Position numbers and translations under genes: made by a program. A DNA stretch of 64,000 bases. Origin: Planctomycetia bacterium (lineage in GTDB: Bacteria; Planctomycetota; Planctomycetia; Pirellulales; UBA1268). The stretch is taken from contig JAIOPD010000070.1 in assembly GCA_021414115.1 (NCBI GenBank), positions 40,879-104,878 on the forward strand, given 5' to 3'. Below are positions 2,320-54,937 of this stretch, piece by piece. Under the pieces are notes generated by a model. The model saw only the letters and a list, made by a program, of their open reading frames with translations. It ran no database searches and was not told the origin of the DNA. The first letter of the stretch is position 1; every line of letters starts with the position of its first letter.

Positions 2320-2386
2320 GCCGCGAGGTCCCGTCGCTTCCGCTCCGGGCTTTCTGGCGGATGCCGCGGTCGACGCCGGACTTCCG

Positions 2387-2492
2387 GGAAGCCCGGAGCG
2401 CAAGCGACGGGTAGACGGGCGGACACCGTGGGTGTGATGCGGAGCGGGTTGGGGTGGCGAGCGTATACCCCGCGCTCGCGCTTGGGGCTTCC
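2387..2492 (+). repeat. Family-1 rod-hairpin intergenic repeat, copy A
   Basis: 106 nt, GGAAGCCCGGAGCGCAAGCGACGGGTAGAC...GTATACCCCGCGCTCGCGCTTGGGGCTTCC. The termini are inverted repeats. It lies in the convergent gap between glmS (stop 2319) and the transglutaminase gene (stop 2532). Confidence 0.85.
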
Positions 2493-2531
2493 TGACGGAC
2501 GCGTGCCGCGGAGCGGCGAGCCCGCGGCGAC

Positions 2532-8372: not shown

Positions 8373-9863
8373 TTACGCGGGTCGCGAAGTGATCGCGGCG
8401 AGCGCCGCATCGAGGTCGCGGGACTGGATCGGCATGGGCACGATCCGACGACGCCCGTCCACTTTCGCCTCGTCGGCGATGCCGGCCTGTTTCGCACCCA
8501 CGAGGAGGATCGCGGGCACATCGGCGAGATAGGGATCTGACGAAAGCTGGTTGAACGCCTCGACGGCGGCCTGGCCGAGCGAACGGGTGCTGAGCACGAG
8601 GAAATCGGCGGGAAAGGGCGGGCTCGAGAACCGCGCCAAGGCCCGCTGCGGATTTTCGGTGAGCAGGACCCGGTAGCCGAGCTTGGAGAAATATCCCCGC
8701 AGCGTCTGCTGCGCGGTCGCGCCCGACTCCACGAGCATCAGGCTCCCCTTTCCGCTCGCCGCCCGACTTTCCTTGGCCGGATTGGCCGCCGCATGGTCGG
8801 CCGGCGCCGCGCCCGCCACGGAAGCCGGCGCCGCCCCGTCGCCAGCGGCGCGACGCGCGATCGCGGCCTCGAGAGCCCGCTTCACGTCGGTGGCCGTCTG
8901 CCACCGTTCGATCGGATCGAGGTGCATCATCCGCGACACGATGTCGACCACGTCCCGCGGCAGGTCGGGCGACCGCGTCCCCAGCGGCACCGCCTGCGTG
9001 TACCGCCGCGGATCGCTCCGCACGTTGCGGTCGCGCGACTCGGTGAGCGGCGACTCGCCGGCGAGCGCGAGGTAGGCGACCGTGCCGAGGAAGTAGATGT
9101 CGCTGCGGACCGCATCATCGCGGACGCCCGTTGTCTTCTCGAGCGCCGCATAGTCGACCGTCCGTGGATTGGTGAGGCGGCCGAGCGCCTTGTCGCCCGT
9201 CTCGTCGACTCCCGCCAGGCCGAAGTCGACGAGCTTGGCCTGCCCCGTCGCCGACACGATGACGTTCGACGCCTTGAGATCGCGATGCGTGATCCCACGG
9301 CGGTGGGCGTACTCCAGGCCGCTCACCATCTGGTGGATCAGGTCGAGAGCCCGTGGCACGTCCACCGCCCCGCGAATCTTCACCAGCTCGCGGAGCGTCT
9401 GCCCCTCGACGAACTCCATCGTCAGATAGCTCACGCCATTTTCCTGGCCCACGTCCTCGATGGCGACGATGTTGGGATGACGCAGCACCCGGCCCATCTC
9501 CCCCTCGTGCCGGAAGCCACGGCATTTGTCGGGATCGTTGGCAAACCGGCTGCGGAGCACCTTGACCGCGAGGACCGATCGGTTGTCACGATGGATCGCG
9601 CGATACACCCGCGCGAACGAGCCGGCACCGACCTGGTAAAGCACCTTCGCCAGACCGAAGAAGTAGCCCGCCTGTTCGCCCCGCAGGAGCCGCTCGAGTT
9701 GAAAGCCGGTGAGCAGCTCACGCCGCACCAGTGCCTGACCGAACTCCTCCGCCGAGAGACCGTGCCCCCCCACCTCGGCGAACACTTCATGGAGGGCCGC
9801 GGCGGACACGAGGTCGAGCGTGCCCGCGAGATGCAGCAGGCTGTCTGCCGTTGACGGCTTCAT
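8373..9863 (-). CDS. Ser/Thr protein kinase with a C-terminal degenerate receiver-like domain
   Basis: Kinase motifs are present: VAVKVL, HRDLKASN and DFGLAG. The C-terminal ~125 aa (SLMLVESGATAQQTLRGYFSKLGYRVLLTENPQRALARF...ADFLVLSTRSLG...VPAILLVGA) has CheY-like periodicity but lacks the acidic pocket and the phospho-Asp. Confidence 0.85.
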   Translation of the reverse strand: MKPSTADSLLHLAGTLDLVSAAALHEVFAEVGGHGLSAEEFGQALVRRELLTGFQLERLLRGEQAGYFFGLAKVLYQVGAGSFARVYRAIHRDNRSVLAVKVLRSRFANDPDKCRGFRHEGEMGRVLRHPNIVAIEDVGQENGVSYLTMEFVEGQTLRELVKIRGAVDVPRALDLIHQMVSGLEYAHRRGITHRDLKASNVIVSATGQAKLVDFGLAGVDETGDKALGRLTNPRTVDYAALEKTTGVRDDAVRSDIYFLGTVAYLALAGESPLTESRDRNVRSDPRRYTQAVPLGTRSPDLPRDVVDIVSRMMHLDPIERWQTATDVKRALEAAIARRAAGDGAAPASVAGAAPADHAAANPAKESRAASGKGSLMLVESGATAQQTLRGYFSKLGYRVLLTENPQRALARFSSPPFPADFLVLSTRSLGQAAVEAFNQLSSDPYLADVPAILLVGAKQAGIADEAKVDGRRRIVPMPIQSRDLDAALAAITSRPA

Positions 9864-13134: not shown

Positions 13135-13167
13135 AGCCCTTCCGGGATGCATCGCTTCATGCGCCCG

Positions 13168-13273
13168 GGAAGCCCGGAGCGCAAGCGACGTGTAAACGGG
13201 TAGAGGCCGCGAACGTGCCGCGGAGCGAGTCGGGGTGGAGGATGTATTCCCCGCGCTCGCGCTTGGGGCTTTC
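13168..13273 (+). repeat. Family-1 rod-hairpin intergenic repeat, copy B
   Basis: GGAAGCCCGGAGCGCAAGCGACGTGTAAAC...GTATTCCCCGCGCTCGCGCTTGGGGCTTTC. Lies in the convergent gap. Its last base is the first base of the plsC stop codon complement (CTA at 13273-13275). Confidence 0.85.
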
Positions 13274-13947
13274 TAGGAGAGAGTCGCACGCGCCCGGGCG
13301 TCGAGGTCGCGGATCCGCTGCGTGCAGACCTCGAAGATTTCCCGCTCGCTCATCGTGGCCACCTCCTCCGTGGTGAGGATCTTGCCGAACTCGACCCGGA
13401 TCCGACCCGGCCGCGGAAAGAGCCGTGTTCGCGGCCAGCATTCGAAGGCCCCCACGATCGCCACCGGCACGACGGGCACCCCAGCTCGCTTGGCCATCAG
13501 GCTGAAGCCGCTCTTGAAGTCTCCAAGCCGGCCGTCGAAGGTCCGCGCGCCCTCGGGAAAGATGATGACCGCCGCACCCCGTTTGAGTCGCTCGATCACG
13601 ATCTTCATCGCGGCGATCACCGATGCGTTGCGATCGATCGGCACTGCGTCGAGCGCCGTGATCACCGCGCCGAAGGGCTTGAACGTGTAGAGCGAACTCC
13701 GCGCCAGGCTCGAGAGGCGGCGGTCGGTCGCGAGGCCGAGCAGCAGCGGGTCGAGATGGCTCTGGTGACTGGAGAGCACGATCAGGCCGCCGTGCGCGGG
13801 CAGCGGCTCGGCGAACCGCGAGCGAAAGCCGAACAGCGACACGCCGAGCGTGCGACAGAGCACCCAGAGCACGGCATAGAGGCACTTGCCGAAGAGACTG
13901 TGCCCGCCGCCGGTCGGCGCCGCGTCGTCGGTGGGCCGCGGCTTCAT
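13273..13947 (-). CDS. plsC: 1-acyl-sn-glycerol-3-phosphate acyltransferase
   Basis: 224 aa. HX4D motif (SSHQSHLD) and FPEGARTFDG motif. Confidence 0.85.
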   Translation of the reverse strand: MKPRPTDDAAPTGGGHSLFGKCLYAVLWVLCRTLGVSLFGFRSRFAEPLPAHGGLIVLSSHQSHLDPLLLGLATDRRLSSLARSSLYTFKPFGAVITALDAVPIDRNASVIAAMKIVIERLKRGAAVIIFPEGARTFDGRLGDFKSGFSLMAKRAGVPVVPVAIVGAFECWPRTRLFPRPGRIRVEFGKILTTEEVATMSEREIFEVCTQRIRDLDARARATLS

Positions 13948-24444: not shown

Positions 24445-24486
24445 CGCAAAACGCGGCGATCCATGCGCCGTGGCGACACGTGCTCG

Positions 24487-24591
24487 GGAAGCCCGGAGCG
24501 CGAGCGACGGGTAGATGCGTGGCCTCCGCGAGGGTAGCGCGGAGCCAGGCGGGTGGACGGCAATGTCCCCGGGCTCCCGCCCGGGGCTTCC
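24487..24591 (+). repeat. Family-1 rod-hairpin intergenic repeat, copy C (most diverged)
   Basis: GGAAGCCCGGAGCGCGAGCGACGGGTAGAT...GTCCCCGGGCTCCCGCCCGGGGCTTCC. Lies in the convergent gap between the pil operon end (24444) and the ilvB stop (24630). Confidence 0.8.
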
Positions 24592-24629
24592 TGACGGAGA
24601 GGGGTCCCGGGACGCCGCCAGAACTCCCG

Positions 24630-30881: not shown

Positions 30882-31319
30882 TCACTTGGCGATGAGCGGG
30901 TTTTTGGTCTTCAATTCGGGAAAGAGAGAGAAATCACGGTCAGCGGTCCAGAGCTCGGCGACACCGTGGTTCAGGCAGATGGCCGCGATCCGTGCATCGT
31001 GAACCTTCCCGCCCACGATCCTGGCCTGCACGCACAAGCGTTCGAGCTTGTCGAGATAGCCGGGACCCTCGTGGAGCAGATGCAAACCCGGGGAGCTCTG
31101 CCAGGCCTTGAGCGATTCGAAGGCGGTCGCCTGCGGGGTGGGCGGGGCGTAGATGCGCGGATGGGTGACGATGGCAAGAAACTCGTGCAGGGAACTCCAG
31201 GCGATGGCCCAGGAGTTTCCGCTGTTGGCGAGATCGACGAGACACGACTTGGCTGCGGCATGCCACTCGCTGTCTTCGCGGTGGGCGTAGACGAGCAGAT
31301 TGGTGTCAATCGCGATCAT
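30882..31319 (-). CDS. vapC: PIN-domain ribonuclease toxin, type II TA system
   Basis: 145 aa. MIAIDTNLLVY (first acidic PIN residue) and WTADRDF (last). ATGA overlap with the upstream antitoxin gene. Confidence 0.9.
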   Translation of the reverse strand: MIAIDTNLLVYAHREDSEWHAAAKSCLVDLANSGNSWAIAWSSLHEFLAIVTHPRIYAPPTPQATAFESLKAWQSSPGLHLLHEGPGYLDKLERLCVQARIVGGKVHDARIAAICLNHGVAELWTADRDFSLFPELKTKNPLIAK

Positions 31320-31573
31320 GACTCCGCGGTTCCATAGATGGCGTCGCGGATCGCGTCCCAGCCTTTGCCGCGGAATTCAGACTGCAGCCCTCTTCCCCGG
31401 AAAGTCACGGGCTTGATCGGCTTTTGCTTCGACGACGCCTTGCGGCCGAGCACCTCACGCAGGCCCTCTTCAATGAGGCTGCGCAACGTGGTCTGGGAAG
31501 CCTCGGCCTCGCGTTTCGCACGGAGGAGAAGGTCGTCAGCAATATCTACGGTTGTCTTCATATGGGTAACCAT
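31316..31573 (-). CDS. vapB: VapB-family antitoxin
   Basis: (MVTH)MKTTVDIADDLLLRAKREAEASQTTLRSLIEEGLREVL. The start is the ATG at 31573 or 31561. The stop overlaps the vapC start. Confidence 0.8.
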   Translation of the reverse strand: MVTHMKTTVDIADDLLLRAKREAEASQTTLRSLIEEGLREVLGRKASSKQKPIKPVTFRGRGLQSEFRGKGWDAIRDAIYGTAES

Positions 31574-31960
31574 ATTGGACGGCTCTCGCTCTGTCAAGCT
31601 GCCCCGCCCCGCTGCTCGCGCCCCGGCTCTCGCCGTTCGAGTTCCTATCCTCGGCTCGCACGACACCTCGCGCACAAGCCTGGGCCAAGCTCGTGGCGCG
31701 GGTGGCCGCCGACCGACTGGGGAGAGCTCGTGCAGACGCACGACCACCGGGCAATCTTTCAGGCGTCACTCGACGAGCTGCCCGTGATCGACGTCCACAG
31801 CCTCTGAACGGTGCCGCACAGGGCCTCGGGCCCCGCCCCATTCTCTGCCCGTCACCAGTCCCACGCTTGCGAATCTGCCGTTGGACGTCCCAGCCTTGTG
31901 TGGCGGATTGCAATTCATCTCCTTTTCAACGCGGCTTCATTTTTGTGGGCCCATTGATGA

Positions 31961-32663
31961 GCGTCATTGCGATCGTTGCGTCGCTACGAGGACAACCTGC
32001 GACATGAGCGATTCTCGCCGGATGGATCAAGCATCCTGATCTACGGTGAGCACCAAGCGACACGCCATGATGTGACCACCGGAAAAGCCGCCGAGAAAGT
32101 CCAGCTAGCTACCCGTAGGCAGGGGTTTCAAGAGTCGATACGCCAAAATCAATGCGCACATTGAGAATGAGGAGCAACATGACGCATCCAGAGCTCTCAT
32201 CTACACCGCCGATTCATCCAACTACCAGGCGATCCTTGACGCGGCGACCGGTAAAGAAATGAAGGCTTTGGGCGACTTCGACACGAATTACACCGCGCAC
32301 TTCTCGCCTGACGCACGGCTTGTCGTGCTGGTGCCGACGTTCGGTCAACACGCCGACGACGCCCGAGACCCTGAGATTCTCGTGATCGACGCCACCACCG
32401 GGGCCGTGGATCGCCGCATGTATTCCGGGCCGTGGGCGTTGCCATCGTTAGACTTCGACGCCGCTGGCAGTCGCATGCTTGTGACCGAGGCAATGAATCT
32501 CAACGTCTGGCGAACATCGCGTGAGTGGCGGCAGTCGGAACAGCAAACCCCCATGCCGAGGAAGGTGCTCGATACGCTGAAGATTCTCGCGGAAGAGCAA
32601 GCGAAGAATGCCGCGGCGTCAGGAGCGGAGCCAGCGAGTGCGCCGAAGAGCACTGGGACTTGA
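31961..32663 (+). pseudogene. beta-propeller (WD40/TolB-like) repeat protein remnant, frameshifted
   Basis: Two frames carry repeat-like strings. One reads ERFSPDGSSILIYGEHQATRHDVTTGKAAEKVQL (frame of 31967). The other reads ALIYTADSSNYQAILDAATGKEMKALGDFDTNYTAHFSPDARLVVLV...ILVIDATTGAV (frame open from 32109). They are separated by a stop at 32106. Local G+C is lower (32/60 at 32101). Confidence 0.3.
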
Positions 32664-32860
32664 GAAGAATGGGAGCACTCGTTGCGCAGGCGGCGAGGGC
32701 ACGGATGGCGATGAGCGGCGGCTGGTTTGGAGCCAGGCGTGGCCATGTCGATGCCGGTGACGCCGTTGCCGAGTCGGCAGGAGAATGCGGGGCGGCCGCT
32801 GACGAGTTCGTCGAGAGCGTCGTGAGTGATCGCCACGCCCGTCTGCGTGCTGCCGCGGCG

Positions 32861-33066
32861 CGAACCGGTACGGAAGCGTTGATCGGCACGCAGGCCGCCG
32901 ATTGCGTCGCGTTGATGACCCTGGCCGTCGACCGTGTGCGGACCGCCCGGCGTGATCTTCGGGATCTCGACTCGTCCTGGATCGCGACGCCATTGTGGCG
33001 CACGGTCATCCGGGGGTTCGCGATCTTCTTGTCCCCCGCGAACCGCGGCCCCGTGAACTCGATGTG
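32861..33066 (-). pseudogene. DUF1080 (3-keto-disaccharide hydrolase-like) C-terminal remnant with a 1-nt frameshift
   Basis: The minus strand reads HIEFTGPRFAGDKKIANPRMTVRHNGVAIQDE, shifts frame at about 32971, then reads VEIPKITPGGPHTVDGQGHQRDAIGGLRADQRFRT. This resembles the ...APRF..DGK...VTV.HNGV.VQD.VE..GPT...IGLQ.HG..V.FRNI end of that family as I recall it. It is preceded by an in-frame stop. Confidence 0.25.
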
Positions 33067-33157
33067 TCATACGGCTCCCACTTGATCCTCGCGCGCCCGG
33101 GCCCAGTGTGCCGCTGATTCCGCGTTGCTGGCGGTTAACGCCTGCGGGCGTGGGTTC

Positions 33158-33252
33158 GGGGCTACCCATCCTCCGTCGCCGGACGTTCGTTGCGGGCATC
33201 CTGCCCTCCACTCACTCGATGCCGGCTCCCGGAGCACGGGTAGCCCCTCGCG
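33158..33252 (-). repeat. Family-2 hairpin repeat, copy 1 (inverted relative to copy 2)
   Basis: The outer arms GGGGCTACCC (33158-33167) and GGGTAGCCCC (33238-33247) are exact reverse complements. The reverse complement of the interior matches 51176-51246. Confidence 0.8.
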
Positions 33253-33389
33253 GTCTCCTCGTTCGCCCAGAGGAACGACGCCGCATACGTGGTTCCCTGC
33301 GAACCACGATCTTGGCGGCATGGCCATCTTTCCGGCTTGCGCGATCCCTCTCGGAGCGCCATGATGCGGCCTCCACCGGAGGAGGTCGC

Positions 33390-33890
33390 ATGGACATCAG
33401 CGAACGGAAGCGAGGGGATCGCCAGAAGCTTGCCCGACTGATCGCCAGGGAATCGAATGCCATGCAGCGAGACCGGCTGCGGAGCGGCCTACTCGTGCTG
33501 CAGGGCCGGCAGACACTCGAAGTGTCTGCCTCTGTGGGCCGCAGTCGGGCCTTCGTGCAGCGTTGGGCATACGCCTATCGCGACGGCGGTATCGAGGCGG
33601 TGCAAGGACGCACGCCACCGGGCCGTCGGCCACGGCTGTCGCCCGAGCAGGAGACTCGCTTCGTGCAGCGGGTGAAGGCCGGCGCGACACCGCGAGACGG
33701 TGTCGCATCGCTGCGAGGGCGGCAGATTGAAGGCATTCTGGATCGCGAGTTCGGCAAGACGTTTTCCCTCAATGGGGTCTACCAGCTGCTCAAGCGGCAT
33801 GGATTCGTTTGCCTCGAGCCCCGGCCGAGGCATCCACGGCAGAACCCGGCTGCAGCGAAGGCCTTCAAGCGGCGCGCCCCCCTTTTGTGA
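33390..33890 (+). CDS. IS630 transposase, N-terminal HTH part (orfA)
   Basis: MDISERKRGDRQKLARLIARESNAMQRDRLRSGLLVLQGRQTLEVSASVGRSRAFVQRWAYAYRDGGIEAVQGR...LSPEQETRFVQRV. GGAGGAGG Shine-Dalgarno 5 nt upstream of the ATG. Confidence 0.85.
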   Translation: MDISERKRGDRQKLARLIARESNAMQRDRLRSGLLVLQGRQTLEVSASVGRSRAFVQRWAYAYRDGGIEAVQGRTPPGRRPRLSPEQETRFVQRVKAGATPRDGVASLRGRQIEGILDREFGKTFSLNGVYQLLKRHGFVCLEPRPRHPRQNPAAAKAFKRRAPLL

Positions 33891-34435
33891 ATCGCGTGCG
33901 GGCCTCACGGCCTCGCACGAAGGTTCGCCTGTGGTTCCAAGACGAGGCGAGATTCGGCCAACAGGGCACGCTGACGGCTGTCTGGGCGATCAAGGGATCG
34001 CGGCCGACCGTCGTGCGTCAGAACGGCCGCAAGTCGATCTGGATATTCGCGGCCGTCGAGCCTGCCACGGGCTGGTCACTGGCCATGCCATTCCGTGATG
34101 TGAACACCGCGACCATGCAGGCGTTCCTTGACGCGGCAGCGAGCAAGCTTCACCGCCGCGAGCATGCCGTCATGATCCTCGACGGCGCAGGCTGGCATAG
34201 TGCACACAAGTTGCGATGGCCCCGGCGCATCACGCCGCTGTTCCTGCCGCCGTACTCACCAGAACTCAATCCAGTCGAACGACTCTGGCACTGGCTTCGC
34301 GAGCACCACTGGAGCAATCGCACTTACGCCGACGAGCAGGCCCTCGTCGAGGAAGCCGTCAGGAGCCACCGGACGCTTCGCAGGACAGACATCCGGTCGA
34401 TCCGCAGAACCCGGTGGATCACGCCTGGGGATTAA
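33809..34435 (+). CDS. IS630 transposase, DDE catalytic part (orfB, -1 frame relative to orfA)
   Basis: LWFQDEARFGQQGTLTAVWAIKGSRP...VMILDGAGWHSAHKL...LFLPPYSPELNPVERLWHWLREH, the DD(35)E signature of IS630/Tc1-mariner. The frame is only reachable from orfA by a -1 shift near 33875-33888. Confidence 0.85.
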   Translation: MPRAPAEASTAEPGCSEGLQAARPPFVNRVRASRPRTKVRLWFQDEARFGQQGTLTAVWAIKGSRPTVVRQNGRKSIWIFAAVEPATGWSLAMPFRDVNTATMQAFLDAAASKLHRREHAVMILDGAGWHSAHKLRWPRRITPLFLPPYSPELNPVERLWHWLREHHWSNRTYADEQALVEEAVRSHRTLRRTDIRSIRRTRWITPGD

Positions 34436-48728: not shown

Positions 48729-48778
48729 CGCGAAGCAGGTTGACTGGCGGGCCCTATTCCCCGCGGAGATGCCTCTCA

Positions 48779-48884
48779 GGAAGCCCAGAGCGCAAGCGAC
48801 GGGTAGACGGGCAGCAACCTCGACGGTAGCGCGGAGCGGATCGACGTGGCGGGCGTATTTCCCGCGCTTGCGCTTGGGGCTTCC
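48779..48884 (+). repeat. Family-1 rod-hairpin intergenic repeat, copy D
   Basis: GGAAGCCCAGAGCGCAAGCGACGGGTAGAC...GTATTTCCCGCGCTTGCGCTTGGGGCTTCC. Lies in the convergent gap between the TPR gene (stop 48728) and the isomerase gene (stop 48919). Confidence 0.85.
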
Positions 48885-48918
48885 CGACGAAGACCCACGG
48901 ACGGCGACGTCGAGCGAT

Positions 48919-51110: not shown

Positions 51111-51250
51111 GCGAGGGCCTGCCCATACCCCGTCGCCGGCGTATGACGCCAAGCGCAGGCAGGATGCCGAAGCGCAGGCGGCATCCGAGTGAGTGGAGCC
51201 CAGGATGGGCGCAACGAACGTCCGGCGACGGGGCATGGGCAGCCCCTCGC
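51111..51250 (+). repeat. Family-2 hairpin repeat, copy 2 (long form)
   Basis: 27-nt arms GAGGGCCTGCCCATACCCCGTCGCCGG (51113-51139) and CCGGCGACGGGGCATGGGCAGCCCCTC (51222-51248) pair with 2 mismatches. The interior shares about 65 nt with the reverse complement of 33158-33225. Confidence 0.8.
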
Positions 51251-52653: not shown

Positions 52654-54630
52654 CTACTGGATGAAGATGAACTCGCGGGTGTTGAGCAGCGCCCAGATCA
52701 GGTTGCCGCAGCCCGTGGCGGGATCGGCGGCGGAGGCGATCTCGTCGCGGGCCTCGCGGCGATCGTCGGCCGCGGGCTCGTGGGAGAGCACCGACAGAAA
52801 GATCACGTCGACGGTCTCTTCGGGATCGTGGCTCATCACGGTCTCGTAGATCACGGAGCCCTTCTCGAGCATGGCATGCGTGATCGGCCCGTTGAACATC
52901 GCGAGGATCTGCGGGATCGTGGGCACGGTGCGGCCCCCCTCGATCGTCTCGCGGTCGCTCTGGCCGAACTGCCGGAGGAAGTGGCCGAGCGGCAGCGGCG
53001 TGGGCATCTCGCTGGCCTTCATGAGCCACTGGCCACGGTAGCCGCAGTTCTGCTGGAGCATGCGCTGGTAGCGGCCAGGGCCGTAGCGGTCGAAGAAGGC
53101 GTCGAACTGCCGCTCCACGTCGTCGAGCGACGCCTGCCGCAGATCGACGCTCGCGACCTCGGCGATCTCGGCGGCGGCGGGCCGCTGCACGCTCCAGGGA
53201 TTGCGGGCGACGAGCGTCACGATCGAATCCCAGAGCTGCTCGGCCGTCATCCGCCGCAGGGCCGGGCCCGTGAAGCGAAAGGGCTCGGCCGCGGTGGGAT
53301 CGTGGATCACCGCCCGCCGCTGGTAGGCAGAGGTCGAGACCACGGCGCGGACAAACTCACGGAGATCGAAGTCGAGTCGCAGGACGAGGTCGGTGAGGTG
53401 CTCGAGCAACTCGGGATCGCTCGGCGGATTCTCCTTGCGGAAGTCGTCGTCCGGCTCGACGAGCCCCACGCCCATCACCTTCTTCCACATCCGGTTGGCG
53501 ATCGTGCGGGCGAACTGCCGGTTCGTCCGCGCGACCATCCAGCTTGCAAACTGCTCCCGGCCGTCGGCGTTTTTCACACTCGCCGGCACCGACCCCCAGA
53601 GGAGTTTCTTCGTGACGGGCTCCAGCGGCTTCGCGTCGTCGTATTGATAGTCGTGCGGCAGCCGGAGCGGACGGTCCTGAAAGCTGACGCCCGTCGCATT
53701 GGCCTGGATGAACTGAATCAACTGCGCCGCCTTGCGACCCCTGGATTCCTTGGCCTCCTTGACGAGCGCCCGGACGGCCGGCGGCGGGACGGGCTTGGCT
53801 TCCTTGCCGGGCTTGCCAGGCCGCATGGCGGCGCCCAGCCGCATTTTCGTGCCCGCCGTGAAGGCAGCCAGTTCGTAGAACTCGTGCTGCGTCCAGCGGT
53901 CGAAGGGATGGTCATGGCACTGGGCGCAGCCGATCTGCGTGCCGAGCAGCACGCGCACGGTGTTGTCCACATAGGGCAGCGGCATGCCGTCATCGCGGAG
54001 CTGGAAGCCGACGGCGGGGTTTTCCCAGAGCCGGCCGTCGGCGGTGAGCATCTCGCGGACCCAGTCGTCATAGCGCTTGTTCGTGCGGATCGAGTCCTTC
54101 ACATAGGCCAGATACGGCTCGAAGATCAGGTTTCGCTGCGGCCGCTCGGTGAGCCGGAGGATGTCGGCCCAGAAGTTGTAGAAGTGACTGACATAGTCGG
54201 GGCTCGCCAGCAGCCGCTCGATGAGAGCATCGCGTTTGTCGGACGAGTCGTTCTGGAGAAAGGCGACGGTCTCGTCATAGGTCGGAATCCGTCCGGCCAA
54301 CTCGAGATGGATGCGGCGGACGAACTGGGCGTCGTCGAGCGAAGGCGACGGCACGACGCCGTACTCCTGCCAGCGGGTCGCGAGAATCGCGTCGATCGCG
54401 GCGGCCTGTGCACGGACCTTGTCGCGACGGCGGGCATCGACCGGTGCGACGTCCATCGCAGGTCGGTTCGGGGCCGCCGTCACCGCCTTCGGCAGGCCGC
54501 CCTTGCGGTCCGCTGAGGTGTCGGGCTTCGCACGGTTGGCCGCCAGGGAGACGACCGCCCCCGCCACGATCAGGCAGGCGGCGAGCGCCGACGCGACACG
54601 CTGCGAAATCGGCACCACCTTCAACCGCAT
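52654..54630 (-). CDS. DUF1549/DUF1553 domain protein (PSD1-type)
   Basis: Starts at the ATG at 54630 (MRLKVVPISQRVASALAACLIVAGAVV). Contains FVRRIHLELAGRIPTYDE and GCAQCHDHPFDRWTQHEFYELAAF. It is the usual partner of DUF1501 in Planctomycetota. Confidence 0.88.
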   Translation of the reverse strand: MRLKVVPISQRVASALAACLIVAGAVVSLAANRAKPDTSADRKGGLPKAVTAAPNRPAMDVAPVDARRRDKVRAQAAAIDAILATRWQEYGVVPSPSLDDAQFVRRIHLELAGRIPTYDETVAFLQNDSSDKRDALIERLLASPDYVSHFYNFWADILRLTERPQRNLIFEPYLAYVKDSIRTNKRYDDWVREMLTADGRLWENPAVGFQLRDDGMPLPYVDNTVRVLLGTQIGCAQCHDHPFDRWTQHEFYELAAFTAGTKMRLGAAMRPGKPGKEAKPVPPPAVRALVKEAKESRGRKAAQLIQFIQANATGVSFQDRPLRLPHDYQYDDAKPLEPVTKKLLWGSVPASVKNADGREQFASWMVARTNRQFARTIANRMWKKVMGVGLVEPDDDFRKENPPSDPELLEHLTDLVLRLDFDLREFVRAVVSTSAYQRRAVIHDPTAAEPFRFTGPALRRMTAEQLWDSIVTLVARNPWSVQRPAAAEIAEVASVDLRQASLDDVERQFDAFFDRYGPGRYQRMLQQNCGYRGQWLMKASEMPTPLPLGHFLRQFGQSDRETIEGGRTVPTIPQILAMFNGPITHAMLEKGSVIYETVMSHDPEETVDVIFLSVLSHEPAADDRREARDEIASAADPATGCGNLIWALLNTREFIFIQ

Positions 54631-54675
54631 GAGGTCACCTCGATCGCATCCGGGATACGTGACATCGGGCGCCGG

Positions 54676-54782
54676 GGAAGCCCGGAGCGCGAGCGACGGG
54701 TAAACGGGTCGCCGTCCGGAGCGGTGCCGCGGAGCGGGTTGGGGTGGCGGACGTATACCCCGCGCTCGCGCTTGGGGCTTCC
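54676..54782 (+). repeat. Family-1 rod-hairpin intergenic repeat, copy E
   Basis: GGAAGCCCGGAGCGCGAGCGACGGGTAAAC...GTATACCCCGCGCTCGCGCTTGGGGCTTCC. Lies between two same-strand (minus) genes. Confidence 0.85.
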
Positions 54783-54937
54783 TGAACAATGCATGCCGCC
54801 CTCGGCGAACCAAACCGGTTTTGTCTTTCTCCCGGCCGCATCCGCCACAAGGGTCGCGAAAAACAGGAACCTATGAACATCACGGATGCACCTTGACCTT
54901 CGCCTGCGGCTCGAAGCCTGCCTGTTTCGACACCGAT

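Follow-up and report, generated by a model that had tools for sequence, protein, structure and literature searches.

Rod-shaped intergenic repeats in a Planctomycetia genome are probably REPIN-like doublets of class-3-type hairpins

A 64,000-nucleotide stretch of the Planctomycetia bacterium assembly GCA_021414115.1 (contig JAIOPD010000070.1, positions 40,879 to 104,878 of the forward strand; this whole stretch is hereafter the window) carries between its genes a repeated element of about 106 nt that can fold from end to end into one long imperfect hairpin, here called the rod. What is such an element: an RNA structure kept by the host at the ends of its genes, or a member of a family of mobile repeats? 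An earlier note on this DNA had listed five copies and had offered both answers, naming terminators or 3'-end stabilisers on one side and, on the other, a mobile family resembling repetitive extragenic palindromic (REP) sequences or miniature inverted-repeat transposable elements (MITEs). In this study, the repeated unit was found to be a REP-like arm of about 27 nt, not the 106-nt rod, and the rods to be a further case of a kind of selfish repeat that is known but has been little studied. The rods are probably non-autonomous elements similar to REP doublets forming hairpins (REPINs), their arms being class-3-type REP-like hairpins that are handled by a class-3 Y1 enzyme.

The five plus-strand copies were borne out at the positions given for them (Table 1), with a mean column identity of 80% over the alignment of about 106 nt; the invariant columns fall almost entirely within its first 25 and last 25 positions. 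The 23-nt motif at the 5' end, GGAAGCCCNGAGCGCNAGCGACG, has nine matches in the window at three mismatches or fewer, against 0.01 expected from shuffles. The inventory of five had overlooked a sixth unit, a lone inverted arm to the left of copy A, which lies within an inverted repeat (I4) and is 89% complementary to positions 2384-2411. All 11 arms in the window are intergenic. The inverted repeat of the rods usually extends outward by two more bases, as CA...TG across the family and mostly as CG...TG in the window.

The two arms of a rod, L and R, are themselves small hairpins. The L arm has the consensus CA-GGAAG-CCCG-GA-GC-GCAA-GC-GA-CGGG, that is, CA-GGAAG-CCCGGAGCGC(A/G/C)AGCGACGGG, and the R arm, read on its own strand, is GGAAG-CCCCAAGCGC(A/G/C)AGCGCGGGG. 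Each folds into a 4-bp G+C stem, a 2x2 internal loop (GA/GA in the L arm, AA/GC in the R arm), a 2-bp GC stem and a GCAA, GCGA or GCCA tetraloop, preceded by a foot that reads C(A/G)GGAAG in the window family and CAGGAAG in 42 of 88 unique arms. With DNA parameters, an isolated L arm folds as (((((..((....))..))))), with an outer stem of 5 bp, and so follows the scheme of the structure strings published for class-3 hairpins (see below). A strict descriptor of the class-3 type matches the L arms at 2393, 24493 and 54682 on the plus strand and at 2331 on the minus strand, against 0.78 matches per shuffle; those of copies B and D miss it by a single mismatch.

The rod is an inverted heterodimer of an L and an R arm around a variable spacer, i.e., a REPIN-like doublet. 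Across about 50 loci (cited by number below), arms stand alone, form inverted doublets with spacers of 3 to about 200 nt, or are gathered into alternating clusters and tandem arrays (L020, L028, L049 and L054), and nearly all planctomycete doublets pair one arm of L type with one of R type. At the fourth stem pair, 47 of the 88 unique arms carry G-C and 38 carry C-G, with only 2 mismatched; this compensated difference between L and R accounts for the G.G and AC/GC mismatches that are conserved in the rod. Since the pairs within arms are compensated and the mismatches of the rod are conserved, the arm hairpin, not the rod, is the structure that is kept. Within the tandem arrays, mini-doublets of 67-96 nt follow one another head to tail, the periods being 93, 106 and 126 nt (L049 6717-6969, L020 6185-6473 and L028 3145-3366), an appearance that suggests local tandem amplification rather than transposition.

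The rod can nevertheless fold as a whole. The pairing proposed for copy A (1-8 with 99-106, 10-15 with 92-97, 17-20 with 87-90, and 23-27 with 80-84) is exactly its minimum-free-energy fold as RNA, all five rods fold as long hairpins (z of -2.5 to -5.6 on the plus strand and -3.3 to -6.0 on the minus strand), and rods A and E also do so with DNA parameters (z of -3.0 and -4.6). A covariation analysis, which the earlier note had recommended, was run on 24 doublets and did not discriminate between the two structures: pairing stood at 95.6% in the rod and at 98.6% in the arm hairpins, neither exceeding shuffles because the arms are almost invariant. In the rod, double changes occur at one pair only, a count reached by 100 of 500 shuffles.

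The arms, which the earlier note could not place in any described family, have a counterpart in the literature. Quentin et al. 2018 (BMC Genomics 19:475, PMC6006769) describe, among HUH-Y1 proteins, a small class 3 whose members come mostly from Planctomycetes, Acidobacteria and Proteobacteria; the associated hairpins are reported at about 600 copies in Solibacter usitatus. Their Table S1 lists CACGAG-CCG-GAA-GC-GTGA-GC-GA-CGG-GT for Planctomyces limnophilus, CAGAG-CCGC-GA-CC-GTNA-GG-GA-GCG for S. usitatus and CCGAG-CCGC-GA-CC-GTAA-GG-GA-GCGG for Legionella, with a foot consensus of CnGA and outer stems of 3-4 bp. The window L arms share with these entries the unpaired 5' foot, the G+C stem of 3-4 bp, the GA/GA 2x2 loop, the 2-bp stem and the tetraloop of G-N-N-A type, and the P. 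limnophilus entry has the same 3' half, AGCGACGGG, as the window L arm. Both sets of hairpins are multi-copy and intergenic and occur in Planctomycetes and Acidobacteria. They differ in the foot (CAGGAAG in the window, CnGA(G) in class 3), in the window arms' CCCG/CGGG stem, GC/GC inner stem and GCAA/GCGA/GCCA loop, and in organisation; the window arms are for the most part joined in L/R heterodimers, about 106 nt long and with a semi-conserved spacer, an arrangement that was not found for class-3 hairpins in the available portion of that paper. This match to an already described hairpin type lowers the novelty of the element. Rfam holds no relevant family: with Rfam 15, only a tRNA was matched in the whole window at the gathering threshold, and a relaxed search of 2300-2560 returned only generic miRNA-precursor hairpin models far below their thresholds. 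A literature search on the arm sequence itself gave no relevant paper, and a blastn search of a plasmid collection gave no match.

The connection of such hairpins to class-3 genes was followed in metagenomes, where searching for the class-3 motifs (NHVH and YV[VI]xEQ, set apart by a fixed spacer) gave 101 loci, with the same 171-nt spacer in 73 of the 82 in-frame matches. Three translated genes from these loci score 31-34 bits against the Pfam Y1_Tnp family (cutoff 23), and homologues from Acidobacteria or Bryobacterales bear the label "REP element-mobilizing transposase RayT" or "transposase". A profile search of the PDB with the class-3 alignment (A2) returned only marginal matches to IS200/ISDra2 transposases (E of 0.035-0.8) and no class-3 chain. 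Hairpins of the form [3 bp]-GA-[2 bp]-N4-[2 bp]-GA-[3 bp] number 112 in the class-3 loci against 5 in shuffled sequence, both of their stems vary in compensated fashion, and in L169 and L170 they lie within about 30 nt of each gene end in inverted orientation. A link to the window arms is found in L099, a metagenome contig of 41% G+C whose class-3 gene is among the three recognised by Pfam: the exact core of the window arms, AAGCCCGGAGCGCAAGCGACGGG, stands 130 nt downstream of this gene, with related arms on both sides. The arm core is thus linked with a class-3 gene at one locus or more, and it is the same, nucleotide for nucleotide, in genomes of very different kinds. The foot varies by group, being CAGAG in Bryobacterales (which fits CnGA), AAAAAG in L099 and CGAG, AGAG or TGAG in the sampled class-3 loci.

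The same contig (Ga0102944_1039069) shows some further detail. After the class-3 gene come two tandem 29-nt partial arms, TATCTGGTCGCTTGCGATTATATAATATG, and a complete inverted arm, TATCTGGTCGCTTGCGCTCCCAGCTTG, which precede a full arm on the same strand; the locus is flanked on both sides by response-regulator-like genes, and its host is clearly not a planctomycete.

The link to Y1 transposases drawn in the earlier note thus survives in part: an enzyme of the Y1, IS200/IS605 type is indicated by L099 and the published hairpins, but of class 3 and not of the canonical REP-associated tyrosine transposase (RAYT) kind that recognises GTAG. In many respects the window family does behave like the REPs, bacterial interspersed mosaic elements (BIMEs) and REPINs of other bacteria, such as the Y and Z REPs of E. 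coli and the REPINs of Pseudomonas: all are short imperfect palindromes whose inverted doublets form long hairpins, with a preference for heterodimers of two arm types, with singlets and clusters, with a 3' intergenic location, with IS110-family insertions into them and with a Y1 HUH enzyme as the associated protein. Its doublets, singlets and clusters and its 3' bias could accordingly be read as those of a canonical family mobilised by a GTAG-type RAYT (class-2 TnpA-REP), and GGGTAG or GGGTAA does follow the L arm in the five window copies. However, this tetranucleotide, which lies 3' of the L arm and distal to its loop, is confined to the window subfamily, and across the family the bases beside the hairpin vary (TAG, TAA, AAT, ACT, ATC and others), such that the cue taken from it does not hold. 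The unpaired element that is conserved is instead CAGGAAG, across the hairpin from this position; a 5' GT[AG]G foot is absent, and the class-3 Y-motif is YV[VI]xEQ rather than YxxxNP. As far as the published families were available to us, the scheme of stem, GA loop and tetraloop fits class-3 hairpins and neither the GTAG nor the CGTC REPs, and a six-frame pattern scan of 54 arm-bearing or syntenic loci found no open reading frame (ORF) with the RAYT motif YxxxNP. A canonical GTAG family is therefore regarded as very improbable.

REP sequences of RAYT/REPIN systems are usually lineage-specific. Such systems are also described as vertically inherited; the hairpin core of the present family, unlike these, is identical to the nucleotide across phyla and across 41-70% G+C. 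An identity with the CGTC REPs was considered separately and rejected. Those repeats have an unpaired terminal CGTC tag, a stem of 8-9 bp starting with A-T, a loop of 4-5 nt and a CCA tail (Di Nocera 2013), whereas the CGTC of the window arms lies inside the stem on the complementary strand, the stem consists of G+C throughout and the tail reads CTTCC(TG).

The description of the rods as REP/MITE-like likewise holds for its first half, given the short hairpins that occur as singlets, inverted doublets and clusters, and fails for its second. A MITE derived from an insertion sequence (IS) with a DDE transposase, with the arms as terminal inverted repeats, would account for inverted-repeat ends of about 25 nt, a variable interior and a size of about 100 nt. 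Against this, the arms also occur alone and in alternating arrays, and no target-site duplication of 2-8 bp was found in 17 doublets (no direct repeat of k>=3 at offsets 0-3, and none of k=2 at offsets 0-2). No full-length DDE IS with arm termini was found in the window or the loci, and the IS beside arms in Bryobacterales is an IS110 element inserted into the arm, not a parent. Such an origin is considered extremely improbable. The only DDE IS of the window, an IS630-like element at 33108-34435, carries no arms. Its transposase is split over two frames (helix-turn-helix domains at 33108-33890 and DDE_3 at 33809-34435) and follows a PIN/VapB-like toxin-antitoxin pair at 30882-31747 on the minus strand; the G+C content of this region (30882-34435) is lower, at about 66% against 69-72%.

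A scan for the 23-nt motif in one genome per species placed the arms in at least 52 loci, from metagenome-assembled genomes (MAGs) of Planctomycetota and of Acidobacteria/Bryobacterales; among the matches listed, the planctomycete loci belong to Planctomycetaceae, Pirellulales and Planctomicrobium MAGs. This spread matches the published range of class-3 proteins and is counted in favour of a class-3 system. One further contig, L053 (IMG/VR contig UViG_3300036857_000827, classed as viral), holds at 9636-9688 a perfect palindrome of 53 nt, ACAAGCCCGGAGCGCCAGCGACGGG CGG CCCGTCGCTGGCGCTCCGGGCTTGT, which consists of two L-type arms 3 nt apart.

Turnover can be followed in the relatives of the window genome, of which the nearest by GlmS and SppA are labelled Pirellulales; these two window proteins match NCBI proteins of a "Planctomycetia bacterium" MAG at 100% identity, and an exact look-up of one window protein gave no record. 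In relatives with 95% identical GlmS, the orthologous gap between glmS and the DUF2126 gene holds four arms in another arrangement. The gene order around sppA is kept in five relatives. Copy D has an orthologue in L065 (a 92% relative) and is absent from L062-64, L066 and L067, and in the 94%, 89% and 87% relatives other palindromic repeat families stand in its gap; copy E is absent from the orthologous gap in L062, L066 and L067, which are all the relatives that keep this gap. Flanks have diverged beyond alignment in relatives while the element is still about 80% identical, which fits turnover from a pool of copies or constraint, not a conserved RNA specific to the locus. In L058-L061 (GlmS 88-92% identical), a tRNA-like sequence was seen by eye after glmS and the DUF2126 neighbour is elsewhere, so the synteny of site A breaks between the 95% and the 92% relatives. 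In L062, the orthologous gap of site D (268-454) holds an A+T-rich perfect palindrome, CGTGGAAAAAGTCATCCATGACCTTTTTCCACG, directly after the stop of the tetratricopeptide-repeat (TPR) gene, which may be a hairpin resembling a conventional terminator.

Table 1. Arms and rods of the repeat family in the window, with the gene gaps in which they lie
Feature	Position	Strand	Arms	Gap
Copy A, L/R heterodimer rod	2387-2492	+	L arm 2385-2413 (+), R arm 2466-2494 (-)	Convergent: glmS (stop 2319) and DUF2126 gene (stop 2532)
Copy B, rod	13168-13273	+	L arm 13166-13194, R arm 13247-13274; variant CGTG closes the L stem	Convergent: large ORF and acyltransferase gene; last base of copy is part of the acyltransferase minus-strand TAG stop, 13273-13275
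Copy C, rod, most diverged	24487-24591	+	L arm 24485-24513, R arm 24566-24593	Convergent: ORF ending 24444 and TPP-enzyme gene (stop 24630)
Copy D, rod	48779-48884	+	L arm 48777-48805 (CCCA variant), R arm 48859-48886	Convergent: TPR gene and AP_endonuc_2 gene
Copy E, rod, best paired	54676-54782	+	L arm 54675-54702, R arm 54756-54784	Two minus-strand genes: 155 nt after AMP-binding/ACAD stop, 46 nt before PSCyt2/PSD1 start
Lone L-type arm	2329-2356	-	CAGAAAG-CCCG-GA-GC-GGAA-GC-GA-CGGG	Opposite in orientation to copy A, on its left at a distance of 28 nt

The gene context of the copies was read from an approximate gene model based on G+C content at third codon positions, together with Pfam. 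Under this model the gene-end context described in the earlier note stands, with copies A-D in convergent gaps and copy B overlapping a TAG stop by its last base. The placement of copy E after a stop is correct but is only half of its context, since this copy also lies upstream of the start codon of the PSCyt2/PSD1 gene (CAT, 54628-54630). By approximate gap counts, about 4 of the 7 convergent gaps are occupied, against 1 of 21 tandem and none of 6 divergent gaps (hypergeometric p of about 0.0035); the bias of the copies towards convergent gaps is real. All five copies are on the plus strand (two-sided chance 1/16). A replication-strand bias was considered as the cause, but because orientations are mixed among nearby copies in the relatives L054, L038 and L046, this uniformity may be chance.

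The same context is what an RNA element of the host would show. On this account the rod would be primarily a bidirectional terminator that needs no T tract, or a stabiliser of 3' ends, selected at gene ends where canonical terminators are few. The occupation of about 4 of 7 convergent gaps and of no divergent gap agrees with it, as does the high stability of the rods as RNA on both strands. The earlier note's claim that canonical hairpin-plus-T-tract terminators are lacking agrees with a simple scan, which found none in the four gaps that it covered, those at A, B, D and E. Additionally, REPs elsewhere are known to stabilise mRNA and terminate transcription (background cited in PMC6006769 and PMC3733652). 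The rods themselves, however, have no T tract either: what comes after the right arm is TGACGG, TAGGAG, CGACGA or TGAACA, with no T run at any copy, C included. The rod pairing shows no significant covariation, and mismatches are conserved in the rod and pairs compensated within the arm. Arms also stand singly, in tandem arrays and, for copy E, upstream of a start codon, and the orthologous gaps of relatives at 87-94% identity lack the element or hold other repeat families. A primary role as a host RNA element is thus judged improbable, and is compatible, as a secondary role, with the rods being class-3 REPIN-like elements.

Combined, these results favour the non-autonomous class-3 reading of the rods, for which the following mechanism can be drawn by analogy with the TnpA proteins of IS608 and ISDra2 and with TnpA-REP of E. 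coli. The subterminal hairpins of IS200/IS605 elements such as IS608 and ISDra2 resemble the arms in being small hairpins read on single-stranded DNA by a Y1 HUH enzyme; in these elements a foot tetranucleotide guides cleavage and no target-site duplication arises, as none was seen for the arms. In contrast to these elements, the rods are multi-copy and without a gene of their own, and their arms are inverted rather than on one strand. We infer that this genome has a class-3 gene and that its enzyme acts on the arms. This class-3 Y1 enzyme, the product of a single-copy gene at another place in the genome, would attach to the hairpin of an arm where the DNA is single-stranded, e.g., at replication forks, and the bases of the foot would set its cut site. 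By cutting and rejoining single strands it could excise, copy or insert doublets without target-site duplication. Copies landing in promoters or genes would be lost, so that survivors would accumulate in 3' gaps, and above all in convergent ones. If the very stable rod should also act on transcripts running into it, by pausing or by protecting 3' ends for instance, this would be a putative secondary consequence.

A more far-reaching version can be formulated, in which the class-3 enzyme and its hairpin form a distinct REP system that crosses phyla with a hairpin (GA/GA loop and GNRA-like loop) constant to the nucleotide from 41% to 70% G+C, it is the L/R rod and not the single arm that transposes, L and R serving much as left and right ends do, and the rods in Planctomycetia have been co-opted as bidirectional transcript ends without T tracts at convergent genes. 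We regard this version as doubtful.

Several points weigh against a class-3 origin of the rods. A six-frame motif scan of the window, 64 kb of a 107.7-kb contig, and of 574 kb of arm-bearing and syntenic loci found no class-3 ORF, and to our knowledge biochemical work has yet to be done on a class-3 enzyme from any organism. The foot of the window family, CAGGAAG, does not appear to fit the published CnGA literally, and the R arms lack the GA/GA loop. The assignment of arms to more than one phylum depends on the binning of MAGs. The window copies have an ungapped identity to copy A of 63-82% and are old; in the relatives, the flanks are too diverged for an empty site to be placed to the base. 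A literature search gave no later study characterising class-3 HUH-Y1 proteins and their hairpins beyond one survey by manual inspection.

The arms are also targets of another mobile element. In a Bryobacterales chromosome (MAG OZ250179.1), all 16 of the 16 pattern matches are junctions of a 1.74-kb element of the IS110 family, with the Pfam domains DEDD_Tnp_IS110 and Transposase_20 and nearly identical copies (L003, L010, L015, L021-L024, L026, L027, L036, L037, L039, L042, L047, L051 and L052). In the 12 loci with a readable left end, the insertion point is fixed at CAGAG^CCCGGAGCG, the border between foot and stem. The target is a native family of L/L doublets of about 150 nt, with arms that read CAGAG-CCCGGAGCGCAAGCGACGGG and thus have the same core and a canonical class-3 foot. 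These matches had been candidates for a family with a GGAAG foot and were withdrawn as such, the GGAAG there being the right end of the inserted IS110 element. In E. coli and Pseudomonas, too, REPs are known as targets of IS110-family elements, and the site-specific targeting in Bryobacterales resembles that of IS621 and ISPpu9/10 in REPs. As IS110 recombinases choose their sites via a guide (bridge) RNA, the targeting of the arms is of interest in its own right.

The arms have other repeats as neighbours. At 51111-51250, in the gap after sppA, the window holds a second, unrelated rod-hairpin repeat, GCGAGGGCCTGCCCATACCCCGTCGCCGG ... CCGGCGACGGGGCATGGGCAGCCCCTCGC, with 29-nt arms that are 93% complementary; its family, GGGCAGCCCCTCGC, also adjoins arms in L008, L014 and L025 and is present in the orthologous site-D gap of L067. 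In many MAG contigs, e.g., L004, L005, L014, L025, L035 and L040, arms lie within about 100 nt of contig ends, suggesting that these repeats break short-read assemblies. Arm repeats therefore probably interrupt the assembly of the genomes that carry them.

For the study of class-3 HUH-Y1 enzymes, the window and the associated loci supply a substrate defined by sequence, with both arm types, their foot and the geometry of the heterodimer, together with a class-3 profile (alignment A2) and a locus, L099, in which hairpin and gene stand side by side. For the biology of Planctomycetota and Acidobacteriota, they explain a recurrent structured intergenic repeat in MAGs of these phyla that could otherwise be mistaken for a non-coding RNA.

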